Source: an uncultured Gammaproteobacteria bacterium (GTDB lineage Bacteria; Patescibacteriota; Microgenomatia; Daviesbacterales; UBA10151). From it: a stretch of 64,000 nucleotides of DNA. This document shows, piece by piece, positions 6,125 to 45,823 of the stretch. Location of the stretch: the NCBI GenBank assembly GCA_964500725.1, contig CAZCNP010000001.1, positions 257,520-321,519 on the forward strand, read 5' to 3'. The notes beneath the pieces are model-generated. The model saw nothing but the letters and a program-made list of their open reading frames with translations. It searched no databases and had not been told where the DNA came from. The number at the start of each line of letters is the position of its first letter. Position 1 is the first letter of the stretch. A program made the position numbers and the translations under genes.

Positions 6125-6778
6125 TTAGTTAGGCACCTTTAGACAATCTATGATTTCTTGATGGATATCATCTGGAATCCTCATGACTTTACCTTTCATA
6201 CAATTTATTACCTGCCAATTTTCTTGTTGGGCCAGGTCTAAATAGATTTTGCTTGCCTGCTGCAGATGTTTTAAATCCTGTTCATGTAAGTCTTGGAATC
6301 TACCTAAAACATTTTTTTGCCCTACTTGAGGATCAATATTTAAAAAGATTGTTAAATCTTCTTTAGGCATACCATTATCCCTATATTCCAGTTCATCCAA
6401 CCACTTGAAGAATTCTTCCCTTTTTTCTTCGGACAAGTTTGCTCCCATATGAGCCTTAGAAGAAGATACATACCTATTTGCTAAAACTATTTTCCCTTCA
6501 GATAACCATTTTTCTATTTTTGGCTTTGCTAACAATCTATCTCCAGCAAAAGCTAAAGCTAAAAGATATGGATTAACTGTATCAATAGATCCAAACTCCC
6601 CCTCTAAATACCTTTTAATTAATTTTCCATAAATATTATCTTCATATCTAGGGAAACTGACTACTTCATAGGGAACCTTTTTATCTTTTAAATACTGGGC
6701 AAGTAAATTAGCCTGGGTAGTCTTACCAGACCCATCAATCCCTTCAATAACAATTAATTTCCCTTGATTTTTGTCCAT
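6125..6778 (-). CDS. tmk: thymidylate (dTMP) kinase
   Basis: GKLIVIEGIDGSGKTTQANLLAQYL P-loop plus the DRY/LID region of the Tmk family. Confidence 0.9.
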   Translation of the reverse strand: MDKNQGKLIVIEGIDGSGKTTQANLLAQYLKDKKVPYEVVSFPRYEDNIYGKLIKRYLEGEFGSIDTVNPYLLALAFAGDRLLAKPKIEKWLSEGKIVLANRYVSSSKAHMGANLSEEKREEFFKWLDELEYRDNGMPKEDLTIFLNIDPQVGQKNVLGRFQDLHEQDLKHLQQASKIYLDLAQQENWQVINCMKGKVMRIPDDIHQEIIDCLKVPN

Positions 6779-6852: not shown

Positions 6853-7341
6853 TTATCGCTTCACTTTATTTTTAAACAAATTTACAGAAACAATATAGTT
6901 GGCAAATCTCCTTAACAAGGACGAGTATTTGTCATTAGGAACAATAATTTTAGCAAGTTTGTCCTTTTTATCTAAATATTCAGCAAGACAGTAAAAATCG
7001 CCATCTCCTGAAATAATGATTGCTTTATCATAATGAGGAAACTCTATCATTGTGTGAAGTACTAATTCAGCATCAACATTACCTTTCGTATCACCAGAAC
7101 CCTTCTTTTTTCCCTCGACAGTAGGTTTAAAAATTATTTTGTAGCCTGCCTCTCTCAAAAACATATATAAAGATTCATTCTTGGAAATGTAACCAATAAA
7201 AAGGAACGCATGTTGAACTTTGTATTTAGCAGATAAGTATTTCCGAAATCTTGCAAAATCTAGAATCCAGCCGCTACTTCTAACTCCTAAGTTTAAATTC
7301 TGGCTGTCAATAAAAGCATAAACCTTTTCCTGTTTCTTCAT
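6853..7341 (-). CDS. NYN/LabA-like domain protein
   Basis: VYAFIDSQNL ... IISGDGDF is the LabA/NYN (DUF88) pattern. Confidence 0.65.
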   Translation of the reverse strand: MKKQEKVYAFIDSQNLNLGVRSSGWILDFARFRKYLSAKYKVQHAFLFIGYISKNESLYMFLREAGYKIIFKPTVEGKKKGSGDTKGNVDAELVLHTMIEFPHYDKAIIISGDGDFYCLAEYLDKKDKLAKIIVPNDKYSSLLRRFANYIVSVNLFKNKVKR

Positions 7342-7545: not shown

Positions 7546-9162
7546 CTATTTTATGTTGATTCCTGAGGCTGCTTTGATAAAACCTACAAATAAAGGATGT
7601 GGAGACAGAGGTCTTGATTTTAGCTCTGGGTGAAACTGGGTTCCTACAAAAAATGGATGATCTGGTAATTCTACAATTTCGACTAATTTTCCATCTGGAG
7701 AAGTACCTGCAATGATCATCCCACCATTTGTAAACTGCTTTAGAAACTCATTATTAAACTCATATCTGTGCCTATGTCTTTCAGAGATTTCTGGCTTTCC
7801 ATACAGTTTCCTAACCAAGGTTCCTTCTTTCAACTTACAATCCCAAGCTCCCAATCTCATAGTTGCCCCATATTCTCTCTTTAAAAGCTTTTTTTCCTGA
7901 TCTGGCATGATATGAATAATTGGAAATTTAGTATGCGGGGCAACCTCAGTAGTATGAGCATCAAGCATTCCTAAGACATTTCTGGCATATTCTACACAAG
8001 CAAGCTGCATTCCATAACAAAGTCCAAAATAGGGAATTTTATTTTCCCTACAGTATTTTATAGTAGCAATTTTTCCTTCAATATCCCTTGACCCAAATCC
8101 TCCTGGCACAATTATCCCATCAAACTTTTCTAAAACCTGTTCCCTTTCTAGAACCTTTCCGCTATCCAACCAAGTTATTTCTGGCTTTAACCTTTCTGTC
8201 CAAGCAGCATGCTTGATGGCCTCAATCACAGAAATATATGAATCAGCCAAAGTAAAATCACCTGTTGAAAAATACTTACCCACTATAGCAATCTTAACTG
8301 GCTTAGAGACAAAATCTATCTTGCTAACAAATTCTCTCCACTCTTTTAAATCTTTTTCTTTTCTTGTTAACCCCAGCTTACTGAGTAATCTATCTGTTAA
8401 AGCCTGACTATCAAATCCAATTGGAACCTTATAAATACTATCAACATCAGGAGCAGAAATAATATCCCCTGGCTCCAAACCTGTAGTAATGGACAACTTT
8501 TTTATCCTAGAATTATCAAGAGGTTTTTCACTTCTGGCTAGAATTACATCTGGCTGAATACCTACAGCATTTAAATCCCTAACAGACATTTGCGCAGGTT
8601 TACTTTTCATCTCCCCAATTGATGCTGGAATTGGCAAATAAGTAATATGGACATGAGCTACATCTTGGGGATTTTTCAGCTTCATCAATCTATTTGCTTC
8701 CAAAAACAGAATATTTTGGTACTCTCCGGTTGTGCCACCAATTTCTATTACTACCACATCTGCATCTTTGGCTTTACCTGCTTCTTTGGCTCTTTTGATA
8801 ATTTCTGAGGTAACATAAGTTACAACATCTACGCATTCCCCATCATATTCAAGGTTCCTTTCTCTTTGAATAACAGAAAGATATATTGATCCTTGAGTGG
8901 CAATGCTGTTTTTATTTAAGGACTCATTCATAAATCTTTCATAATGACCTAAATCCTGATCTGTTTCTGTACCATCATCCAACACAAATACTTCACCATG
9001 TTCAATTGGGTTCATGGTGCCTGCATCCACATTTAAGTACGGATCCATCTTTATAGGCACAACTTTATATCCCGCTGATTTTAAAAGTAGAGAAATTGAG
9101 GCAGTTGCAATGCCTTTGCCCAAACCACTAATAACACCACCACTAACAAATATATATTTCAC
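7546..9162 (-). CDS. pyrG: CTP synthase
   Basis: MKYIFVSGGVISGLGKGI N-terminus and the C-terminal glutamine amidotransferase GLCYGMQL motif. Confidence 0.95.
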   Translation of the reverse strand: MKYIFVSGGVISGLGKGIATASISLLLKSAGYKVVPIKMDPYLNVDAGTMNPIEHGEVFVLDDGTETDQDLGHYERFMNESLNKNSIATQGSIYLSVIQRERNLEYDGECVDVVTYVTSEIIKRAKEAGKAKDADVVVIEIGGTTGEYQNILFLEANRLMKLKNPQDVAHVHITYLPIPASIGEMKSKPAQMSVRDLNAVGIQPDVILARSEKPLDNSRIKKLSITTGLEPGDIISAPDVDSIYKVPIGFDSQALTDRLLSKLGLTRKEKDLKEWREFVSKIDFVSKPVKIAIVGKYFSTGDFTLADSYISVIEAIKHAAWTERLKPEITWLDSGKVLEREQVLEKFDGIIVPGGFGSRDIEGKIATIKYCRENKIPYFGLCYGMQLACVEYARNVLGMLDAHTTEVAPHTKFPIIHIMPDQEKKLLKREYGATMRLGAWDCKLKEGTLVRKLYGKPEISERHRHRYEFNNEFLKQFTNGGMIIAGTSPDGKLVEIVELPDHPFFVGTQFHPELKSRPLSPHPLFVGFIKAASGINIK

Positions 9163-34967: not shown

Positions 34968-35541
34968 AATTGCACCCTCAAATGGTGCTATCTAAATATA
35001 TCATATTTTTCCCTTAAAATGTCATCCTGAGCAGAGGGCATTCGTTCCTCAATTACTAACGTAATTGTAAGAATTTAGCCTCAAGGGTCTTGACAAAAGG
35101 AGGCTTTTATGGTTAAGATAGAAATATCCTTTAAGACATTGTAGATGGCCTAAAGGACTTAGGCTCTGCCTAATCCCTACTTAGCACGTTTAAAGCCAAT
35201 ATATTTTTCTTCACTGATTTGTTACTTTACGGGAGTCTGGAGTGTGTTATAAAGCAACTGCCTAAACACCAGGACACCCACCTTAGGTTTTCCTGAGGAA
35301 AAACATTGGCTAAACGACTTTAAGTAGGGAGAAATTATTCTGTTTTTCAGTGTAATTTCTGGAAACCGCTTACCATTATGTGGCGGTTCTTCCAGTTATC
35401 CCAACCTTCTGTTTAATTCCCACTAATTTTGGTAAAATATACATTGTGCCGGTGTAGCATAAATGGATTATGCAGTGCTTTTGTAAAGCACAGACTATCG
35501 GATCATACCCGATCACCGGCTCATAATAATTTATATGCCTC

Positions 35542-35570
35542 TTGACTTTCGGTTTTAGTTTGGGTAATCT
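35542..35570 (+). promoter_or_regulatory. sigma-70-like promoter (TTGACT-17 nt-TAATCT) positioned for a leaderless transcript of the 35577 gene
   Basis: TTGACT at 35542-47, 17-nt spacer, TAATCT at 35565-70; ATG at 35577 is 7 nt after the -10. Confidence 0.4.
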
Positions 35571-35576
35571 GAATAT

Positions 35577-36407
35577 ATGCGCCACTCATTCTACGATGAT
35601 CCTCTTTACAAGAAACAACAAGCTGAAATCACACGTAAATACTGGCAACTTGGTAAATTTGATTTCAAAAGAAAATCTGAAAATAGAATTTGTCAGAATC
35701 CGCAGTGCTCTCGCCCATTTACAACAAAACCACATGAGAAGAAAAAATATTGCAGTCATGCATGCGCTACTTCATTCAGTAATAAAGAAAGAACCACTTC
35801 GTTGTCTTCCGAGAAGCTAAGCAAATTATATGCTTCTGGCCAATCAATAACCGATATCGCTAAACATTTATGTATTTCCAGCAATAAAGTTGTTTACTGG
35901 ATGAATAAGTATAGAATACAAAGACGCTCTATCAGTGATGCTGTGTATTTGAAAAACCACCCAAACGGAGATCCTTTTTCGTTTAGAACTCCTTCTTCTC
36001 TAGCAGAGTCAATGCTGTTGGGATTAGGATTAGGTCTTTACTGGGGAGAAAGCAATAAGCTCAATAAAACATCAATAAGACTAGGCAACACCGATCCGGA
36101 TCTCATGAATTATTTCATCAAATTTATGATAGATATTTGCGGGGTTAAGAAGCAAGATTTAAAATTTGGTTTACAAATATTTACTGATATAGATACCCAA
36201 ACAGCAATGAATTACTGGATGGAAGAACTTGATATCAAAAAAGAGCAATTTTACAAACCTATTATCACAAAATCGAATTCTTTAGGTACCTATAGAAAAA
36301 AGAGTAAATATGGAGTTATAATGTTAAACTACCATAATAGAAAATTAAGAGATCTATTAGTAGGAATGCTGCCGACATGGCTCAGTGGTAGAGCACGTTC
36401 TTGGTAA
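35577..36407 (+). CDS. Zn-ribbon + HTH + LAGLIDADG-like homing-endonuclease-like protein; the 3' 37 nt overlap the tRNA-Thr 5' exon
   Basis: C..C..C..C N-terminus, HTH (SITDIAKHLCISSNKVVYW), and LLGLGLGLYWGE...(LAGLIDADG-like) domain. The frame runs through the tRNA 5' half and stops at TAA in the anticodon loop. Confidence 0.5.
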   Translation: MRHSFYDDPLYKKQQAEITRKYWQLGKFDFKRKSENRICQNPQCSRPFTTKPHEKKKYCSHACATSFSNKERTTSLSSEKLSKLYASGQSITDIAKHLCISSNKVVYWMNKYRIQRRSISDAVYLKNHPNGDPFSFRTPSSLAESMLLGLGLGLYWGESNKLNKTSIRLGNTDPDLMNYFIKFMIDICGVKKQDLKFGLQIFTDIDTQTAMNYWMEELDIKKEQFYKPIITKSNSLGTYRKKSKYGVIMLNYHNRKLRDLLVGMLPTWLSGRARSW

Positions 36408-36600
36408 TTGCTCAAATTGCCCACTTAAGGAGTAATCCTTAAGTGAATTCTGAATAACGGTTAAAGATCATCTTACAAGAGATTGAGACCGTGGCGTTAT
36501 ATACGCCCGAACGACTGACAAGGAGATCCCTTAGGGGATTAAGATACAGTCTAGCCAAAAGCGAAGAACGGGGTCGCGGGTTCAATTCCCGCTGTCGGCT
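36371..36600 (+). tRNA. tRNA-Thr (anticodon GGU) interrupted in the anticodon loop by a 158-nt insertion (approx. 36406..36563) that looks like a compact group I intron
   Basis: 5' half GCCGACA-TG-GCTC-AGTGGTAGA-GAGC-A-CGTTC-TTGGTAA; 3' half GAACG-GGGTC-GCGGG-TTCAATT-CCCGC-TGTCGGC-T. The 7-bp acceptor and 5-bp anticodon stems are complementary across the insertion. The insertion contains AATTGC (P-like) and GACTG/CAGTC (P7, R/S-like AAGATACAGTC) and ends in G after an exon U. Confidence 0.7.
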
Positions 36601-38122
36601 CCCAGCCCCGAGTTGTCGGGTCCGCCCATAGGGCGGACCATTGGTTTAGAGCTTTACAGTAAACTTTTTTGTCTTTTAGTGTGAGGTCCGAGCCGAAGAT
36701 TTTTAAAGCAAGTACCTTTTTTGCCTCCATGTTGTTCCCTCTTGCGATATTAGCAACGCTCGCAGCTTCCACTATCCAGTTTTTGAAAGGTCCGAGCCAA
36801 GCATTTTTACTTTGTTGAAAAGAAAAAATCTGTTCTTCTAATTTTTTCTTTAAAGCAAGCAATTGGGATTTTTTAAGCAGATAATCATTTCTCTCAATAT
36901 CTTGGTCAAGATAGGAATCTAATAAGCGTTGGAGTTTAGAGGAAATTAGTTTAATCTCTGCTTGCTTTTCCTCAACAAACGACTGACAGGATTGGGATAC
37001 ACTCTTTTCTTCTAAGGATAACTTATCAAGCATTTTAGCTGCCCAATTTGTCTTCAAAGAAACTGTGGCTATATTATCTGAAAGCTGTCTATCTAAATCC
37101 TCTTGTCGAATAAAGGGCTCGCTACATTTAACAGTTTTGGACTTTTTCGTACAACGATAGTAAATATATGTCACATCTCTGTTAGTTCCTTGGTAATGTT
37201 TAGTCTTTTGCTCAGCAGTAATCATAAAACCACACTGCCCACAGCGAAAAAGTCCTGTAAAAGGCTTTGTTGGCCTAATATCATGCCAAGATCTACTCTT
37301 TTTGCGCCAAACTTCATGAACTTGATCCCACAGTTTCTTTGTAATGATTGGCTCATGTTTGCCTTCGTGGATCTCTCCTAAATATCTAAAATGGCCATAG
37401 TAGAATGGGTTAGATAAAATTTGTTTACTTACTCTATCAATTTTCAAAACCTTGCCATTCCTACCTACTATGCCATTTTTAGCCAAAAAGTGACATATAT
37501 CTAAAATTCTAAACTTCCTTGTTGCAAACATCTCAAAAGCTCTAACAACAGAAGGAGCTTTTCGCCTGTCAACAATAATAGTTTTAGTTCTTGAATCATT
37601 TATGTACCCAATAGGTGCAAGCTGAGGACATTCACCACGTCTTACTTTTTGGCGTAATCCTCTTTTGGTGTTTTCTGACAGAGAGTCCACGAAGTATTTA
37701 CTTTGCCCAAAGGCGATGGTGAGCATAAATTTTCCTTGAGGAGTAGGATCAAACCAGAATTGAGGAAACTTTAAGGCTTTAATTTTCTCAGTGTCAACAA
37801 GATAGATAATTTTGCCACCATCTACACTATTGCGAGCAAGTCTGTCTGGATGCCAAGCCAAAATACCAGAGGCCTCATTTTTTTCAATTCGCTCAACCAT
37901 AGAATTGAAAATTGGCCTGCCAGGTATTTTGGCAGATTGTTTCTCGATAAGTTCTTCTACTATGTATAAATCCTCACGCTTGGCAAACTCACGTAGCTCG
38001 GTAAGTTGCGCTTCAATAGATAACACCTGTTTATCCTCTACATCTGTAGACTTGCGAGCATATAATATGAATTTTTGCAAAGTATTACTGGTAGTTTGTT
38101 CCATAAAAATACAAATAAACAA
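36551..38122 (-). CDS. large serine recombinase (phage-integrase-type LSR: resolvase catalytic domain + recombinase domain + Zn-ribbon + coiled-coil)
   Basis: N-terminal LYARKSTDVEDKQVLSIEAQ (catalytic Ser), recombinase-domain features, CGQCG...C..C zinc ribbon, coiled-coil C-terminus. The last about 50 codons read through the left inverted repeat and the tRNA 3' exon, so the true stop may be earlier. Confidence 0.8.
   Translation of the reverse strand: MFICIFMEQTTSNTLQKFILYARKSTDVEDKQVLSIEAQLTELREFAKREDLYIVEELIEKQSAKIPGRPIFNSMVERIEKNEASGILAWHPDRLARNSVDGGKIIYLVDTEKIKALKFPQFWFDPTPQGKFMLTIAFGQSKYFVDSLSENTKRGLRQKVRRGECPQLAPIGYINDSRTKTIIVDRRKAPSVVRAFEMFATRKFRILDICHFLAKNGIVGRNGKVLKIDRVSKQILSNPFYYGHFRYLGEIHEGKHEPIITKKLWDQVHEVWRKKSRSWHDIRPTKPFTGLFRCGQCGFMITAEQKTKHYQGTNRDVTYIYYRCTKKSKTVKCSEPFIRQEDLDRQLSDNIATVSLKTNWAAKMLDKLSLEEKSVSQSCQSFVEEKQAEIKLISSKLQRLLDSYLDQDIERNDYLLKKSQLLALKKKLEEQIFSFQQSKNAWLGPFKNWIVEAASVANIARGNNMEAKKVLALKIFGSDLTLKDKKVYCKALNQWSALWADPTTRGWEPTAGIEPATPFFAFG
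36601..36724. repeat. left inverted repeat flanking the serine recombinase gene (65-bp perfect core 36607..36671, imperfect extension to about 36724); contains palindrome GTCCGCCC-ATA-GGGCGGAC
   Basis: Exact reverse complement of 38474..38538; the extended arms also match (gagccgaagattttt... vs gagccgaaagattt...). Confidence 0.85.
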
Positions 38123-38423
38123 AACAATAAATCAAGAAACATTTAAGTGGGAAAAGATGTGAGAGTGTAATTTACTTACCTCTCACTATTTCCACTTAAA
38201 TGGCCGCTCCGGTGCACTCAATCCAAGTTGCCTCGAATTGTCCGAAACGGCCATTAAAAAAGACAACCTTTAAGGACTGAGTGCATTTTCAATATATCAA
38301 ACTGCCAGAAAAAGACAATATAGCAAAAATTCAAATTCTTTTATTTTGGGCAAAGTTTCCGAATTTAGTAGGATTTATTAATGTGATTACTAAGAATAAA
38401 ATATCGCAAGAGATTAAAAATTA

Positions 38424-38549
38424 AAAAAGGTACTGCGGTTAAATCTTTCGGCTCTGTTTTTCTCTTTGCTCTTCAAAAAAGTTTACTGTAAAGCTCTAAA
38501 CCAATGGTCCGCCCTATGGGCGGACCCGACAACTCGGGATTGGGAGCAG
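38424..38549. repeat. right inverted repeat flanking the serine recombinase gene (partner of 36601..36724)
   Basis: caaaaaagtttactgtaaagctctaaaccaatggtccgccctatgggcggacccgacaactcggg is the reverse complement of the left core. Confidence 0.85.
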
Positions 38550-38597
38550 ATATACGATATCGCTCGAACATATTTTATCAATAACTTTTAGGGAATG

Positions 38598-38843
38598 AAA
38601 GCTTGCAAGGAAAAGGGGTAAAGGGGAAAAGGAATTGCAAGCTTCCGCTGCAAAATACGTAACCTGACGCATTATTGGTCGGCTTCCAAGGCATATCCGC
38701 TTTCCACCTTGGTACTAATCCCTACCTTAAACTTAAATCCTTCAAGGCTTTAAATCTGATGCATGCATTTGCGGTTCGCTTCGCTCAGTCCCGCTTCGCG
38801 GGACTTCGCTAAACAAAAATATATTATTTGGGGGAAAATTTCG
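38598..38843. repeat. left long terminal inverted repeat (about 250 bp, imperfect) of a 13.6-kb segment
   Basis: Reverse complement of 51927..52179: an identical outer block (aaagcttgcaaggaaaaggggtaaaggggaaaaggaattgcaagcttccgct), a divergent middle, and an identical inner block of about 110 bp (…ctgatgcatgcatttgcggttcgcttcgctcagtcccgcttcgcgggacttcgctaaacaaaaatatattatttgggggaaaatttcg). Confidence 0.85.
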
Positions 38844-38955
38844 CTTTTTCTCTTCTATATTGTTTGAATTATTTATTCTAATAAATATTTTTTATCTGAG
38901 TAACAAGTAGGATTGATACATGATTTAGATGATTTAGAGAGAAGGATTGAGGATT

Positions 38956-39729
38956 TTAGGGTTTGTAATTAGGGTAAAAATATTGCCATTCCATATTTTT
39001 GATACTTTGTTGAAAATCCTCAGGTATAGGTGCTTGTATAGTTCTCATATTTAATTTGATAGGATGTTGGAAAGTCAGTTCAAAAGCATGCAACATAGTT
39101 CTAGTAGCTCTAATAGCATCTCCACAATATAAGTAATCTCCCACAATAGGGTGTTTTAGATAGTCTGCTGAAACAACCCTAATTTGGTGGGTTCTACCAG
39201 TAACAATCTGCACCTCAGTTAAAGTTCTTATTCGTCCTTCGCCATCTTTTAAGCAAACAAGGGGTTTAAAAAAGGTGATTGAGTTTTTAGCTCCTGGAGG
39301 AATAAAACCTCTACCCGATTGTTCTGGTGTAACGATCTGCATTCTTTCAGTTTGAGTTGGAGCAATTGGTAATTCCGCTTTAAAAGGCTCTTTAAAATCC
39401 AATTCGCCTTCTAAAATCGCCAGATAGATCTTTCTCATGTTGGATCCTGCTTTGTTGGCAAATTGATCAAACAGCGAGATAAAAGCGGGACGAGTTTTGG
39501 AAAAAACCATTACACCTGTGGTATCTCTATCTAATCTGTTAGCTCGTTGCGTATTCCAACCTCTTAAGTGCTTTGCAATTTCTTCTATTCCAACTGGATT
39601 TACTTCTGAGTAATGAGAAGCAATGCCAGCGGGTTTGTTAATAATCAAAACATCCTGATCTTCATAGAGTACATGTTTATCAAAAGCATTAAGGAATTCC
39701 CAGGCTAATTGGTCTCTACCTGCAAGCAT
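38956..39729 (-). CDS. RluA-family pseudouridine synthase
   Basis: NRLDRDTTGVMVFSKT (catalytic Asp motif) and HQIRVVSADYLKHPIVGD. Confidence 0.8.
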   Translation of the reverse strand: MLAGRDQLAWEFLNAFDKHVLYEDQDVLIINKPAGIASHYSEVNPVGIEEIAKHLRGWNTQRANRLDRDTTGVMVFSKTRPAFISLFDQFANKAGSNMRKIYLAILEGELDFKEPFKAELPIAPTQTERMQIVTPEQSGRGFIPPGAKNSITFFKPLVCLKDGEGRIRTLTEVQIVTGRTHQIRVVSADYLKHPIVGDYLYCGDAIRATRTMLHAFELTFQHPIKLNMRTIQAPIPEDFQQSIKNMEWQYFYPNYKP

Positions 39730-39856
39730 TATATCAGGGTTGCCACCCCTGCGGTTGATTTGATCAAGTAACCATCTGTTAAAATCCTCAGTTGTAGTAG
39801 GATGACCTAGAAGCTCTCCAGAGGCTGAAAAAATAATAGTTCTTTTTGAGGAAATC

Positions 39857-41038
39857 TCAGCTGGATTTTTTTTCCCAACCTGCAGCTAACAATTCTTTAA
39901 CTTGCTTATTTGTTGCAAGAGGAGCTAGTACCCCAAAAACTACTAAAGCATCTTGGTCTTCAACATTAGCAACAAAGGTATTTTGTTTATCTTCTACAAA
40001 CCTAGTCAGTTTTGCTTGCAGAACTGCTTTACTGCGTTCATCTGAAGAACTTTCAACTTGATTGTTTAGGCTGTCTTGAATGCGTTGTAATTCTTCTTTG
40101 TCATCAGCTTTGATTGCAATTCCTAGTTTTTGTAAAATCTTTTGATCTACTTCCCCAAGCAGCCTACTTAAACGGTAAATTTCTGCTTTAGTTAATATTG
40201 GATCCACTTCCAAAACTTCTTGAGTAGGCGCTTCTTCTGGAGTTTGAGTTTGAATTTCAGAAGCATCAGGCTGTGCTATTTCATTAGGTGTGAATATAAT
40301 AGAACCTGAACTCTGAGCAGGTTCTGGTGATTTTGCTGGCAGAGTTACAATAGGTGTCTCAGCTGATTTTTTCGCTTTTGCTGGTCTTGGAGCTTGTTCC
40401 TTTGCTTTTGCGATTGGGATAGATGTGGCTGCTGCGGACTTGATGGACTCAACAGGCTTTGGTTCAAGGGTATAAGTAGCCTTTTCAGTCATATTGGAAG
40501 ACCTGATAGTAGCAATAGTATATCCTTGATCTACCAGTTTTGGTCTGATATTAGTTAAAAGAAGATTAGTATTGTTCTTAGAAATACCTAAGGCCTCAGC
40601 CAATTCAACATTAGTTGGTCTTTTAGTGGGGTTTGATAAAAACCAATCTACCATTTGTGTCTCTCTGGGACTTAAACCGGTGAAGATTGGTTTTACTACT
40701 GGCATTGATGTTTCAACAGGACTCTCTGGAACTGGTGCAGTACTAACAATTGGAGCGGTAGGATGTTCTTCTGGCTTGGTGACTTGGGGTATGGATCTTC
40801 CTAGGTAATCTTCAGCGGGTGGTTCTATACCCAGTCTTTTTCTGATTAAATTATTTATTTCTGGAACTATAACGTCTATTTGTCTAGCTGCTTTAATCTC
40901 TGAACGGACTTGAGTAGCCAGCGTTTCAGCTTCATCAATTCTTCCTTCTCTTAAAAGAACAGCACTTTGTTCAGATAACTGAGAGGCCCTGATCATTCTT
41001 TCTTGCTTAACAGTAAATAGAATTCTTTCAATAGCCAT
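39857..41038 (-). CDS. hypothetical protein with central Pro/Ala-rich linker and HTH-like segment
   Basis: MVDWFLSNPTKRPTNVELAEALGISKNNTNLLL looks like an HTH; low-complexity PA-rich middle; no catalytic motif recognised. Confidence 0.4.
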   Translation of the reverse strand: MAIERILFTVKQERMIRASQLSEQSAVLLREGRIDEAETLATQVRSEIKAARQIDVIVPEINNLIRKRLGIEPPAEDYLGRSIPQVTKPEEHPTAPIVSTAPVPESPVETSMPVVKPIFTGLSPRETQMVDWFLSNPTKRPTNVELAEALGISKNNTNLLLTNIRPKLVDQGYTIATIRSSNMTEKATYTLEPKPVESIKSAAATSIPIAKAKEQAPRPAKAKKSAETPIVTLPAKSPEPAQSSGSIIFTPNEIAQPDASEIQTQTPEEAPTQEVLEVDPILTKAEIYRLSRLLGEVDQKILQKLGIAIKADDKEELQRIQDSLNNQVESSSDERSKAVLQAKLTRFVEDKQNTFVANVEDQDALVVFGVLAPLATNKQVKELLAAGWEKKSS

Positions 41039-41101
41039 AATATCTTATAATAAGTGTAATTTATACACCTTCTATCTATAAAAGTCAAGCCTCAGCTGAA
41101 T

Positions 41102-44100
41102 CTAAGAGATTCTACCTTGTTTGCGTAACTTAGCTGCAACAGAAACTATCCTTAAGAGTGGTACATCCAAAGCTTCAGCGATCTGAGGATAGGTTAGAGT
41201 TGGGTTTTGATTTACAAAACTTACCAGACTATTGGTAAGTTCTTCATTTTGTTCAACAGCAGATCTTCGCTGGGTTGTTCTACCATCTCTGACAGGCTGT
41301 ATCTCACCATCTTTAATTAACTTGGCTGCAGATGAGGTGATACTGCTATAAGACTTACCTGTTAAAACTATTATTTGAGCATTACTAAAGCCACAGTTTC
41401 TAAGATCTCTGACTAGATTACCCACGATCCGTTTTCTGCCTGGTTTTTCTTCTTCTTTGTCATCTGCTTTTTGGTTTATTATTATATTTTGGGCAAGTAG
41501 TAGAGCTGCTTTTTGAATTGCCTGATGTGCTCTGTCTTCTACCTCTTTAGCTGTTATACCAAAAATAAGGCCTAGGCGTAGCTGGGTGGTCTCTGAAGAA
41601 CCAATACTTCTCAAATACATAGATAATAAACTTTGTTGCTGAGGAGAGAGTTGTTGTTTTACTTCTGGTCTTTGTATAGCTTGTTTGTAAACCTGCTTAC
41701 ACCAATCAATATCCCTGAAATTGATTTCTAATTTACCAGCTAGTTGATCCGCAATTGTGGGTGAAGAAATTGATGGCGAAGGTTCATCAGGAAAGAGTCC
41801 CAATCTAAAAGCGACTCTTTCAGCACTGGCACCACCATATAATATACCAGGCTGATCTTTTTCCCACCAACGAGTTTGCCTTTCTAATCCTTCATCACCC
41901 CTTAGTTTACCAAGACCTGCACCCTCAAGTTGTCTTACTCGTTCTCTTGTGATGCCTAACTGTCTACCAACTTCCTCTAGTGTTCTTTTCTCTCCAGCAC
42001 CATCCAAATTAAATCTTAATGTTAGTACATCGCGTTCTTTTTCATTTAAATGTTGGGCAAATGCTCGCTCGATCTCTGTTCTAAGTGCGTTGTGTTCTGA
42101 TTCTCTTGTTACTATTTCCTCAATAGATTCACTGGGATCTGATATAAGATCCCCTACGGATTTGCTGTCTTGATCATCCTCATCAAATGTTTCGTCTAAA
42201 GAGGCAACGGTCAGTATCTGAGAATAATATATGCTTAAGGCATTATTAATTGTGCCCTTAGACAGCTTAGTTTTTTCTGCCAGTAGTTGCTCCAGCTCCT
42301 CAAGGTTGGGTTCGTGTCCTCGGGCAACTGTAAATTCCCTAGCTATTTTTCTAGTTTTGCTTAATCTATCTTCTGCATGAACAGGTAATCTGATTAACCG
42401 ACTTTTATCTTTAATAGCTCGATCTATAGATTGTCTGATCCAGTGAGTGACATAGGTAGAGAATTTCGTGCCTCGGGAAACGTCAAATTTATCAATCGCT
42501 CTTAATAAACCAAAGCTGCCTTCTTGAATCAAATCAATGAGTGGTAACCCCATATCTCGATGTTTGTTGGCAATTGATGCAACTAAAAGGTAATTACAAT
42601 TTGCTACTAGATGTTGTAAATTAGGACTCTGGGCAATTGCATTTCTCATTTTGTCCCGATCTTTCTCTGGTGTAACTTCCATAAAGGTTGGATCATTAAC
42701 CAAATCAGCAATTGCGGCCCCTCTATCAAGATACTCAAAAATCAATTTTTCTAGTTGGGCTGTCAATAATGGGAAATGACTGATTTGTCTAAAAAATGCT
42801 TCTTCAACTGAGTTTTCCCCGTTTGCTCCATCTACAGTTACAGATGGTGTCTTAAGATACTGGTCAAAAAGTCCATAATCTATCTGTTCGAAAAAGGCAA
42901 GAGCTTGTTTTTGTTGTTCGCTCAAGACTAGGGGTCCCTTTTTTCTCTCTTTCAATCTTGATGTTTTGGTTACAAAACCTGTACTAAAATCAACTTGTCC
43001 TAGAGCGACAGATTCAGCAGCTCGGGCCACTGATTGATAAATATCTTTTGATTCCACAAAAAACAATCCATCCACTACTGCCTCAAACATAGTAAGTTCT
43101 GACATTAAGTGTCCAATCACCCTTTGATCGTAAGTACCTTTTTCTCTACCTAGAATATCGCCAACCAGATAAGGGATATGAACAGTGACTTGTTCTCTTT
43201 GCCCTAGACGATGAATTCGGTCGATTGCCTGGATATAGCGGCTAATAGCATTAGGAGCGATAAAAAGTATTACCTCTGTAGCTCTATTTTTTGATGAATT
43301 TAATGTAATAGATTCTCCAGCTGTTTGATAATTTCCTACAACTACCCCTAACCCCCCTTCCCCTAAAAAATTATTCTGAATGGACAGTTTTTGTTCATCG
43401 TTTAAGGTACCATCTAAAACACCTACTGGTCTGACCCCCAGAGCCCGCAATCTCTCAGCTATAGCTTTCGTACTAATAGGAGAAGTAAATCTGTTTTCTC
43501 CTTCAACAAAAGGCGTGAAGATAACTACCTTTCGACCTTCAGCTAAAAGTTGTTTAACCTTATCTGCCAACCAAGGCATTTTGACTTGTCCTTCCAATGC
43601 CAGTAATGAATAAAATAAAGAGAAAGAATTGTCTGCATTTTTGATCGCCTGCTCTGCTGCTGACTTGAAACTTTGCTGATGCTCAGGAGACATCGATCCT
43701 AAATCTATCGGTATAAATTTAGTTTCTTTGGCTGGTAACTCAGAAATCTCATCCTTACGGCGTCTCATCATTACTTTCCTTAAAACTTTATATGTTTCAA
43801 CAGGATCGTATCTAATTTTTGCAATCAGCTCTGCTGGGATAAGTTTTGGATTGATCAAATGAGCTAAAATTAATGGTTCAATTAAATCTTTAACAAAAGG
43901 AGTACTAGTTGCAAAAGATACAGTCATCTCAGGGTGATCTTTAATAAACTGATATAAAACTGCAATTCTTTTGGCTATACTTACTCCACCTATTTCTTGT
44001 AAGGGCTTACTTAAGTTTATGGCCTCTATATTTCTAGATTTAATATTATGCGCCTCATCGATTAGAGAAGCAGCAAAAGGAAATTCATTCAACAATCTTC

Positions 44101-45817
44101 TAAAGTTAGGGTGGCGAAAAATATCATAGTTGACTAAAATAACTTGTTTATCCTTAGGGCATGCTTTCAATCGAGCCCTTAACACCTTTATTCGCTCATT
44201 TAAGGTTTTACCCTTAAGTTCTTCTTCAGCTACTGAATTAATATTAACCAAATCAAATCTGTCTGATTGTAAGTGTTTAGCTATTTCTTGTTCAACATTG
44301 GCAATAACTGTTTTACTACCAACTACTAAAACTCTACCTGGTTGTTCCTGTGAACACTCTTTTTTGTCCAGTAAATTTAGAGCTCCTAACATAAAAATAA
44401 GAGTTTTACCAGTTCCAGGTTCATCAGCTAAAATATGGCCACCATTTTCGACAAACTGTTTAATTGCTTCTACCTGATGCAGTAATAAATGTTTTTTATT
44501 ACCTTCTGGATCAAGCGTGGTAAAATAGGCTATCTGAGGAGCAAAATTGGCAATCTCCGCAAAATGTTGATAGATCTGAGGAAAAACTTTAGCATCGAAA
44601 AAATCAGTTAAATTTTTGTCTACATCCTCAGAAGGCATAATCTGTTGCTGGGTATAAATTTTCAAAAATTGGGTAAAAACAGTTGGAGGAATAGTTTTTG
44701 CTCCTGGGTTTTTATCCAAATACAGATTCCAAAACGAAGAAGCAGCTTTATAAAGTTCACTTTTAACAAGAGGTTGATAGTAACCTTCTACCAAAGAAAG
44801 AATGACCTTTTTAGAAGCAGCAGCCACGGCTTGATTATCGCTATCAGCCTGCTTAAAAAATACAACTAACGGATCCGATTGAGACAAAACTTCTTTAGCT
44901 CGATGGGATTTGGTTTGTTCTACAAATTTACTGGCTGTCTGTAAGAGTTTTTTCGCTTCCACCTGGGATAGAGCACCAAAACCACTATCTGGTAATTTTA
45001 CTGATAAATAATTGGTTAGAGCATCCAAAATTAGATCCTGGCTATCTGGTCTTAAAGCTTTAGAAGTTTCTACAACGAAAGTAGCTTCTTCAGTCAGGAA
45101 CCGGCCTACAACTTCCTCGGCATGATCCTCAAAATTTTCAGGGAACTTACCGCAAAGCTGTAATTGAACATTCTCCGGAGCTTTCTGAAAAAACATCTCG
45201 AATCTAGCTTTTCTTCTGGCTGCCGGACTACCAGCTTGAGTTTCATCAGCGTTTGTAACAACATACTGTAAATCCCAAAGGATAGATTCAACATGATGAT
45301 ACTTACCAGTAGCGAATCCTCTATATATAACAGTAGGATTCTCAGGGTCAAATGAGTCTAAAAATTGAGTAAAAGTAATATTCTCCTCAAGCAAACTTAA
45401 ATCATGACCAAAATCACTCCAAAATTTAGGAGTAAATACAAAATCGGCGGATTTGAGCTTAGTTGGAATCCATAATTTTTCAGCCATTAACTGTCTTGAT
45501 TCCGAAACTGTCTGTAGAAATTCTTCTTCCCCAAGAGGGGGTTGAAATTCGGATATTAGTGCTCTAGCTACCCTTTGATCATCTGGACGGCCTGATATAA
45601 AAGAATATCCAAGTCTGAGCATAGAGTACTTACCGCCTCTACCATTGAGAGCATTAGGATTTGCGTCAGGATCGAAAAAGTCAAAGAATTGACCAATATG
45701 CATTTTCCCCCCAACTTTTTCCAAATCTTGCTTTAATCCGCGCCAAAATTCAATTGTGCTAATCCCATCTAAATTTTCAGCGGTAAGAGGAGGTTCCTTT
45801 TCCCTAAGCATAGTCAT
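41102..45817 (-). CDS. 1571-aa fusion protein: unknown N-terminal domain + SNF2/RapA-type helicase ATPase + complete sigma-70 (regions 2, 3, 4) domain + C-terminal HTH-like domain
   Basis: SNF2 motifs I ILADEPGTGKT, II LIDEAHNIKS, V NYQTAGESITLNS, VI QAIDRIHRLGQ. Sigma-70 region 2 IDLIQEGSFGLLRAIDKFDVSRGTKFSTYVTHWIRQSI; region 4.2 RTLEEVGRQLGITRERVRQLEGAGLGKLR. Confidence 0.85.
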   Translation of the reverse strand: MTMLREKEPPLTAENLDGISTIEFWRGLKQDLEKVGGKMHIGQFFDFFDPDANPNALNGRGGKYSMLRLGYSFISGRPDDQRVARALISEFQPPLGEEEFLQTVSESRQLMAEKLWIPTKLKSADFVFTPKFWSDFGHDLSLLEENITFTQFLDSFDPENPTVIYRGFATGKYHHVESILWDLQYVVTNADETQAGSPAARRKARFEMFFQKAPENVQLQLCGKFPENFEDHAEEVVGRFLTEEATFVVETSKALRPDSQDLILDALTNYLSVKLPDSGFGALSQVEAKKLLQTASKFVEQTKSHRAKEVLSQSDPLVVFFKQADSDNQAVAAASKKVILSLVEGYYQPLVKSELYKAASSFWNLYLDKNPGAKTIPPTVFTQFLKIYTQQQIMPSEDVDKNLTDFFDAKVFPQIYQHFAEIANFAPQIAYFTTLDPEGNKKHLLLHQVEAIKQFVENGGHILADEPGTGKTLIFMLGALNLLDKKECSQEQPGRVLVVGSKTVIANVEQEIAKHLQSDRFDLVNINSVAEEELKGKTLNERIKVLRARLKACPKDKQVILVNYDIFRHPNFRRLLNEFPFAASLIDEAHNIKSRNIEAINLSKPLQEIGGVSIAKRIAVLYQFIKDHPEMTVSFATSTPFVKDLIEPLILAHLINPKLIPAELIAKIRYDPVETYKVLRKVMMRRRKDEISELPAKETKFIPIDLGSMSPEHQQSFKSAAEQAIKNADNSFSLFYSLLALEGQVKMPWLADKVKQLLAEGRKVVIFTPFVEGENRFTSPISTKAIAERLRALGVRPVGVLDGTLNDEQKLSIQNNFLGEGGLGVVVGNYQTAGESITLNSSKNRATEVILFIAPNAISRYIQAIDRIHRLGQREQVTVHIPYLVGDILGREKGTYDQRVIGHLMSELTMFEAVVDGLFFVESKDIYQSVARAAESVALGQVDFSTGFVTKTSRLKERKKGPLVLSEQQKQALAFFEQIDYGLFDQYLKTPSVTVDGANGENSVEEAFFRQISHFPLLTAQLEKLIFEYLDRGAAIADLVNDPTFMEVTPEKDRDKMRNAIAQSPNLQHLVANCNYLLVASIANKHRDMGLPLIDLIQEGSFGLLRAIDKFDVSRGTKFSTYVTHWIRQSIDRAIKDKSRLIRLPVHAEDRLSKTRKIAREFTVARGHEPNLEELEQLLAEKTKLSKGTINNALSIYYSQILTVASLDETFDEDDQDSKSVGDLISDPSESIEEIVTRESEHNALRTEIERAFAQHLNEKERDVLTLRFNLDGAGEKRTLEEVGRQLGITRERVRQLEGAGLGKLRGDEGLERQTRWWEKDQPGILYGGASAERVAFRLGLFPDEPSPSISSPTIADQLAGKLEINFRDIDWCKQVYKQAIQRPEVKQQLSPQQQSLLSMYLRSIGSSETTQLRLGLIFGITAKEVEDRAHQAIQKAALLLAQNIIINQKADDKEEEKPGRKRIVGNLVRDLRNCGFSNAQIIVLTGKSYSSITSSAAKLIKDGEIQPVRDGRTTQRRSAVEQNEELTNSLVSFVNQNPTLTYPQIAEALDVPLLRIVSVAAKLRKQGRIS

Positions 45818-45823
45818 GTTATT

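Follow-up and report, generated by a model that had tools for sequence, protein, structure and literature searches.

A 158-nt group I intron in a tRNA-Thr(GGU) gene of Daviesbacterales and a LAGLIDADG-fold gene family placed at the 5' edge of the tRNA

The classic group I introns of bacterial tRNA genes are those in tRNA-Leu(UAA) of cyanobacteria and in tRNA-Ile of Azoarcus, the latter of about 205 nucleotides (nt). The subject of this article is a tRNA-Thr(GGU) gene which is split in its anticodon loop by a 158-nt group I intron and which is entered from the upstream side by an open reading frame (ORF) for a protein with a LAGLIDADG fold. The gene lies in a stretch of 64,000 nt (contig CAZCNP010000001.1 of GenBank assembly GCA_964500725.1, positions 257,520 to 321,519 of the forward strand), which is called the window below and in which all coordinates are counted, and the genome belongs by its GTDB lineage to the Daviesbacterales of the Patescibacteriota, or Candidate Phyla Radiation (CPR). 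The kind of intron has already been published: tRNA-Thr(GGU) introns at position 36/37 were described in three of 95 complete Patescibacteria genomes and, after Castelle et al. 2018, named 'divergent group I introns' (Nakagawa et al. 2026, PMC13011429). In the same paper RF00028, the Rfam model of group I introns, was unable to detect them, a phylogeny put all three in the IA clade, 81% of the bacterial tRNA introns belonged to subgroup IC but none of the Patescibacteria ones did, the tRNA introns surveyed were 184-894 nt long and most were without endonuclease genes, and an upstream ORF is not mentioned. A second group of relevant systems is known from phages, namely trans or collaborative homing, in which a free-standing endonuclease acts together with an ORF-less intron, as in cyanophage psbA, in the gene that encodes the DNA polymerase of T3/T7-like phages and in T4 mobE with the I-TevIII intron (PMC3984707, PMC2790892).

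The intron in the window resembles the 'divergent group I introns' of Patescibacteria in its host tRNA, insertion point, phylum and failure with RF00028, and its core sequence is common to the more than 100 loci collected here, but it is shorter and it alone is without a P9 hairpin; it is the smallest, P9-less variant among the introns compared. With the classic tRNA introns it shares the anticodon-loop site, the absence of an internal ORF, the compact P1-P9 architecture and a GNRA loop on P2, although host tRNA and position are different and the window copy is again shorter and P9-less. A preliminary description of this DNA, made from the letters alone, had remarked that tRNA-Thr is not a classic host; as an intron host it is not new, however, since the site had been reported in Patescibacteria. 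What is apparently new is the ORF family, which is fixed 5' of tRNA-Thr(GGU), widespread and apparently undescribed; no description of a tRNA-docked endonuclease-like gene family was found in the literature consulted. We consider it rather probable that the locus combines a group I intron with a free-standing ORF of homing-endonuclease type which is docked on tRNA-Thr(GGU) and often carries the intron along. The features of the locus are the following:

35448..35522, plus strand: intact tRNA-Thr(UGU), the upstream neighbour in a conserved tRNA cluster (ARAGORN; Rfam tRNA model, 54.9 bits in E-value mode)
35542..35570, plus strand: promoter-like TTGACT-17 nt-TAATCT (read from the sequence)
35577..36407, plus strand: ORF of 276 amino acids (aa) with a Cys4 segment, a helix-turn-helix (HTH) and a single LAGLIDADG-fold domain
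36371..36405, plus strand: 5' exon of tRNA-Thr(GGU), positions 1-36 (ARAGORN intron search; cloverleaf of the joined exons)
36406..36563, plus strand: 158-nt group I intron at 36/37 (fold, alignment and pair covariation)
36564..36600, plus strand: 3' exon of tRNA-Thr(GGU), positions 37-73, then CCCA (ARAGORN intron search; cloverleaf)
36619..36639, plus strand: terminator-like hairpin directly 3' of tRNA-Thr(GGU), within the left arm of a 77-nt inverted repeat

The split tRNA-Thr(GGU) gene is not detected in the window by standard ARAGORN or by the Rfam tRNA model. ARAGORN with intron search, however, calls a tRNA-Thr(ggt), 36371-36602, whose position 36 is followed by an intron of 158 nt, and the exons 36371-36405 and 36564-36600, once joined, fold as a perfect cloverleaf with the anticodon GGU, just as the preliminary description had read them. 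For many homologues ARAGORN gives the labels tRNA-Arg(gcg) or tRNA-His(gtg), which were rejected; all of these genes are read as tRNA-Thr(GGU) because they have the common boundaries ...UGGU|intron...G|AAGG. In the window the discriminator U is followed by CCCA (36600-36604), and many relatives encode a CCA 3' end.

The last base of the 5' exon is a U, to which the internal guide sequence offers a G (U·G pair), and the terminal base of the intron is a G. By minimum free energy (MFE) folding the 233-nt precursor reaches -89.4 kcal/mol (z = -5.6; 0 of 200 shuffles were equally good), and this fold already has U·G at the 5' splice site, a long hairpin capped by a GUAA loop, and a further hairpin enclosed by GACUG/CAGUC. 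The elements of the intron are assigned as follows, all on the plus strand:

36403-36409 with 36415-36421: P1
36422-36445: P2, with the GUAA loop
36449-36451 with 36522-36524: P3
36457-36462 with 36487-36492: P4
~36466-36484: P5
36493-36497 with 36503-36507: P6
36513-36517 with 36547-36551: P7
36525-36540: P8
36541-36546: J8/7
36554-36555 with 36561-36562: P9.0 (GC/GC)
36563: terminal G
no coordinates: P9 hairpin, absent in the window copy

The GACTG...CAGTC pair of motifs had been taken for P7 in the preliminary description, and P7 is what it is. The other motif named there as close to the S consensus, AAGATA followed by CAGTC, is present and is J8/7 plus P7', the sequence of which is AAGAUACAGUC. 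AATTGC, in contrast, had been put forward as a P-like element and is instead part of P1, on the strand of the guide sequence (36415-36421).

RF00028 aligns end to end with 36403-36561 but scores 16.3 bits against a gathering score of 50, and it gave no match at E<=0.01 in 14 relatives (50-kb scan). Formally this is a rejection by the covariance model, which the preliminary description had named as a point against a group I intron; the failure is no refutation, because RF00028 has a known blind spot for exactly the tRNA-Thr(GGU) introns of Patescibacteria (PMC13011429). Since the model is below its threshold in the window and silent in the relatives, comparative evidence was used. For this purpose 43 distinct introns from CPR genomes, gathered via homologues of the ORF whose loci have the same split tRNA, were aligned with 8 nt of exon on each side, and RNAalifold predicted P1, P2, P4, P5, P6, P7, P8, P9 and the exon-exon anticodon stem; P3 was added as a pseudoknot prior to the pair counts. 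Over the ten helices pairing reaches 96.1% of the cells, and compensatory changes occur at 30 of 49 pairs, while none of 500 shuffles was as good and sliding of the partner columns lowered the pairing to 32-49%. All 43 introns have both the splice-site U·G and the terminal G, in agreement with the splice-site rules (exon ending in U, intron ending in G) invoked in the preliminary description, and the P1 pairs adjoining the U·G covary (GU in 18, AU in 16, GC in 8 and UA in 1). P3, which forms the P3/P7 pseudoknot, shows changes from CG to UA; P7 is uninformative for covariation because it is invariant. P9.0, in which the two bases after P7' face the two before the terminal G, is paired in 43 of 43 introns with 40 double changes. 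On this comparative evidence the insertion is a group I intron, as had been proposed.

A metagenome scan with the invariant intron core gave at least 80 more loci, nearly all of them in tRNA-Thr(GGU) at 36/37, and the insertion point is the same in more than 100 loci. Among the 113 distinct introns compared, metagenome matches listed included, the window intron is the shortest, which bears out the earlier remark on its small size; the other 112 begin at 169 nt and have a median of 196 and a maximum of 254 nt. The distance from P7' to the 3' splice site is 10 nt in the window copy and at least 27 nt in the others, and P9 is kept in 112 of 112 of them, including those of loci L001 and L003, which are the closest relatives of the window intron. 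Loss of P9 may therefore have crippled the intron by blocking ligation, so that tRNA-Thr(GGU) would be a pseudogene and tRNA-Thr(UGU), which is available 850 nt upstream, would read all ACN codons. To this explanation, for which the uniqueness of the deletion speaks, we give about one chance in four. The deletion, however, is a clean one, which has left P9.0 (GC/GC), the terminal G, P7, J8/7 and both exons untouched; the cloverleaf is perfect and no other decay of the core is visible. Because the deletion is clean and all core helices, P9.0 and the terminal G are kept, the window copy is probably still functional and able to splice despite the loss of P9.

The neighbouring tRNA-Thr(UGU) is also found in loci L003-L006. 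In the window it obtains its 54.9 bits in Rfam E-value mode against a gathering score of 29, and is unlisted in the whole-window scan in gathering mode, which looks like an effect of tool filtering and not like biology. As to the range of the intron family, locus L093 contains three copies of the intron core within 1.3 kb of one strand (6385-6399, 6853-6867 and 7667-7681), two exact and one with 2 mismatches, which are not flanked by tRNA exons and lie among ORF fragments resembling the exons of a protein-coding gene. The locus gave no Rfam match and the exon-like ORFs no PHROGs match. From this locus, the intron family may also be present in protein-coding genes.

The ORF (35577-36407) exists as claimed: its 276 codons span the whole 5' exon of the tRNA, and its stop codon TAA consists of U36 and the first two intron bases. 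A genome scan with the single window protein found no relatives; an alignment-based scan with one genome per GTDB species succeeded and gave 259, all in CPR-type genomes, and 80 of these loci were fetched and examined. The ORF stands immediately 5' of tRNA-Thr(GGU) in 80 of 80, and the tRNA carries the intron in 43, is uninterrupted in 36 and is cut off in 1 by a contig ending at the tRNA start. The ORF is thus tied to the tRNA gene and not to the intron, 36 of the 80 tRNAs being intron-less. Of 72 evaluable loci, 63 have the stop codon of the ORF within the tRNA, and in 55 it begins at tRNA position 8 (U8-A9-G10 = UAG). The long read-through of the 5' exon is therefore real in the window but a minority variant, a stop at position 36 being found in 4 loci; the window ORF has the longer overlap because its positions 8-10 read UGG and not the usual UAG stop.

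Upstream of the ORF, promoter-like TTGACT (35542-35547) and TAATCT (35565-35570) are separated by a 17-nt spacer, and the latter stands 6 nt ahead of the ATG. The same arrangement is common to the window, L001 and L003, and in most of the 80 loci the ATG lacks a Shine-Dalgarno sequence and has a -10-like hexamer 5-9 nt upstream. A promoter so close to the ATG implies that the ORF would be expressed from a leaderless mRNA, as the preliminary description had suggested. A consensus promoter scan of the window did not report TTGACT-17-TAATCT.

The protein encoded by the window ORF is 100% identical to a hypothetical protein of Candidatus Daviesbacteria (CPR/Patescibacteria). It consists of a Cys4 segment (aa 37-65), an HTH (aa 77-116) and a LAGLIDADG-fold domain (aa ~140-270), and belongs to an ORF family with more than 600 members in CPR, most of which are ~194 aa long and are without the N-terminal Cys4 extension. 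Pfam gives weak HTH matches at aa 77-116 and a weak zinc-finger match; of the Zn-ribbon announced earlier, the CxxC...CxxxC segment is present. AlphaFold models of the ORF proteins have pLDDT values of 85-86, and in the fold comparison the predicted model has the alpha/beta fold of LAGLIDADG proteins, with the TliVMA intein endonuclease at the top (84 residues, 2.6 Å, score 8.7), followed by I-Tsp061I (6.6), WhiA (6.3), I-DmoI (6.0), E-DreI (5.8), PI-PfuI (5.6), and I-CeuI and I-Vdi141I (5.2 each). The family motif G-L-G-L-G-L-Y-W-G-E-G closes the first helix of the domain (helix 142-158), and the acidic residue E158, which ends the motif helix, is invariant in 29 sequences as well as in 38 of a larger alignment; the catalytic acid, whose absence the preliminary description had named as a refutation, is therefore present. 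LAGLIDADG_3 matches weakly in 8 of 29 ORF relatives, the best at E = 0.014. Consequently, the LAGLIDADG/HTH assignment holds at the level of fold, HTH and acidic residue, although no Pfam LAGLIDADG model lies above threshold, and the models support a CPR-wide, single-motif LAGLIDADG-fold family with an N-terminal HTH and of homing-endonuclease-like character. The proposal of a homing-endonuclease-like gene placed outside the intron agrees with the fold comparison and the invariant acid.

In WhiA proteins the LAGLIDADG domain occurs twice, in degenerate form and lacking the catalytic acids, and the HTH is C-terminal. As they combine the LAGLIDADG fold with an HTH and are among the top structural matches, the ORF product might be a domesticated DNA-binding regulator like WhiA, or else a helper in splicing or processing, with a host function and not a nuclease one. 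That 259 species have an intact, well conserved ORF (mean column identity, 46%) and that it also stands beside intron-less tRNAs would fit such a role, which we rate on a par with the crippled intron. The ORF family differs from WhiA, however, in having one domain, an N-terminal HTH and the invariant, metal-binding Glu, and so does not qualify as WhiA; its distribution is patchy, with truncated remnants and an internal-deletion derivative, and its paralogues are docked on other tRNA genes. A maturase role, moreover, leaves the 36 intron-less loci with an ORF unexplained.

The remnants come from a survey in the opposite direction. Among the matches listed, upstream sequence of at least 800 nt was available for 64 intron-selected metagenome loci, and an intact-length ORF abuts the tRNA in 24 of them. 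ORF remnants lie upstream of the intron-bearing tRNA-Thr(GGU) in L091, L096, L160 and L164, and also in L112, which has less upstream sequence; in the remaining loci of the 64 the ORF is missing from this place, or a distant paralogue beside a different tRNA is all there is. About half of the loci with the intron have no complete ORF beside the tRNA or retain pieces of it alone. L090 and L144 agree with L087 in both flanks of the ORF but keep ~110 nt of the ORF itself, owing to an internal deletion. On a neighbour-joining tree of the ORF at least 14 changes of the intron state are required, compared with 27 when the labels are shuffled. The intron is present in 54% (43/80) of the ORF-bearing loci, a large enrichment over the 3 of 95 complete Patescibacteria genomes (PMC13011429).

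Paralogues of the ORF, with about 24-35% identity, adjoin the 5' ends of other tRNA genes: tRNA-Thr(UGU) in L104 and L146, tRNA-Tyr in L113 and L150, tRNA-Met(CAU) in L107 and tRNA-Trp in L120. Their location suggests a wider superfamily of tRNA-docked genes. It is conceivable, though on balance we doubt it, that CPR bacteria contain leaderless and free-standing homing endonuclease genes of a LAGLIDADG-HTH type which form a superfamily, every lineage having a tRNA gene of its own, at whose 5' edge it is docked and whose positions 8-10 supply the stop codon.

The reading we favour, a docked homing-endonuclease-type gene that often carries the intron along, would work as follows. P1 would present the U36·G pair to attack by exogenous guanosine, and P9.0 and the terminal G would then dock for exon ligation to give a normal tRNA-Thr(GGU). 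The ORF would have its own promoter, a leaderless mRNA and, as its home site, the tRNA-Thr(GGU) locus; in alleles that lack the ORF its protein would make a cut close to the tRNA's 5' end, and repair would bring in a copy of the ORF. Frequent co-conversion of the intron, 35 bp downstream, by trans or 'collaborative' homing would account for a strong joint enrichment of intron and ORF that nonetheless leaves the two separable. Indirect evidence for such homing lies in the fixed genomic position, the patchy presence and the decaying copies. As the stop codon is located within the tRNA, RNase P processing of a co-transcript might yield a stop-less mRNA and limit expression, which is speculation. 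The co-occurrence with separability and the decaying copies are as in the trans-homing systems of phages. The enzymes of those systems are, however, HNH or GIY-YIG proteins and operate in protein-coding genes of phages, whereas the present family of putative nucleases has the LAGLIDADG fold and is found on bacterial chromosomes, where it adjoins a tRNA gene that contains its stop codon.

Several observations weigh against this reading. The window protein has the motif GLGLGLYWGES, with Ser after the catalytic Glu where at least 90% of the members have Gly; none of the Pfam models LAGLIDADG_1/_2/_3 is above threshold on it, and searches of PDB sequences with the window protein and with the family profile gave only noise. 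A host function would be an equally good reason for the high conservation and the intactness of the ORF in 259 species. The loss of P9 in this copy alone may mean that it splices poorly or not at all. The enrichment of the intron, 54% against 3 of 95, compares two different data sets. Furthermore, L012, an intron-less ORF allele, has the anticodon stem of the commonest intron-bearing alleles, which argues against the insertion site as the sole cleavage target. This last point bears also on strict collaborative homing, in which the enzyme would cut the intron-less anticodon loop and the intron would protect its carrier by splitting the site. An endonuclease-like gene and an ORF-less intron do share one small gene and co-occur far above background; the anticodon loop is uninterrupted, however, in 36 of the 80 ORF-bearing loci, L012 included, and since these genomes would cut their own intact 36/37 site, strict collaborative homing is unlikely, more so than either a crippled intron or a host function. 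That the insertion is some other small folding element in a simply broken tRNA, for which the low RF00028 score and the silence of that model in the relatives could be cited, is very improbable in view of the ten helices supported by covariation, pseudoknot and P9.0 included, the invariant U·G and terminal G, the identical insertion point in more than 100 loci and the published placement in the IA clade (PMC13011429).

The surroundings downstream of the tRNA may be described briefly. Two 77-nt inverted repeats, 36595-36671 and 38474-38550, are 96% complementary and flank the gene of a large serine recombinase (Resolvase + Recombinase + Zn_ribbon_recom; 36551-38122, minus strand). The left arm starts within the final 6 nt of the 3' exon of tRNA-Thr(GGU) and holds the terminator-like hairpin GGTCCGCCCATAGGGCGGACC, and the last 17 recombinase codons are antisense to the 3' exon. 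The recombinase segment could be an invertible segment or a recombinase-borne insertion beside the tRNA. Many other CPR genomes have, no more than a few hundred bases downstream of tRNA-Thr(GGU), a small gene that looks rpmG-like (read by eye) and tRNA-Trp; in the window tRNA-Trp is 16 kb away, and the interval 36600-52513 contains a pseudouridine synthase gene and several ORFs without Pfam matches. The region 36.6-52.5 kb was considered as an island integrated at the 3' end of the tRNA and rejected, as Pfam shows a pseudouridine synthase and an SNF2-sigma70 fusion and no mobile-element genes; it is not obviously a mobile island. The fusion, a 1571-aa ORF (41102-45817, minus strand) with SNF2/helicase domains at aa ~443-872 and sigma-70 regions 2 and 4 at aa ~1074-1306, is unusual.

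It has been concluded that the tRNA introns of Patescibacteria are mostly without endonuclease genes and hence of limited mobility (PMC13011429). In about half of the tRNA-Thr intron loci, across CPR lineages, a gene of endonuclease type stands just outside the tRNA, and its docking offers a testable route by which the introns may spread through trans-homing. The placement of a protein stop codon inside a tRNA gene is in itself an unusual arrangement, ignored by annotation pipelines. If the more tentative superfamily exists, docked genes would spread ORF-less group I introns by co-conversion, and expression would be coupled to tRNA processing, RNase P cleavage removing the stop codon. If the window copy does splice, it would be a natural minimal group I ribozyme without P9, useful for ribozyme structure and engineering, and this P9-less intron of 158 nt would be the smallest natural self-splicing group I intron.

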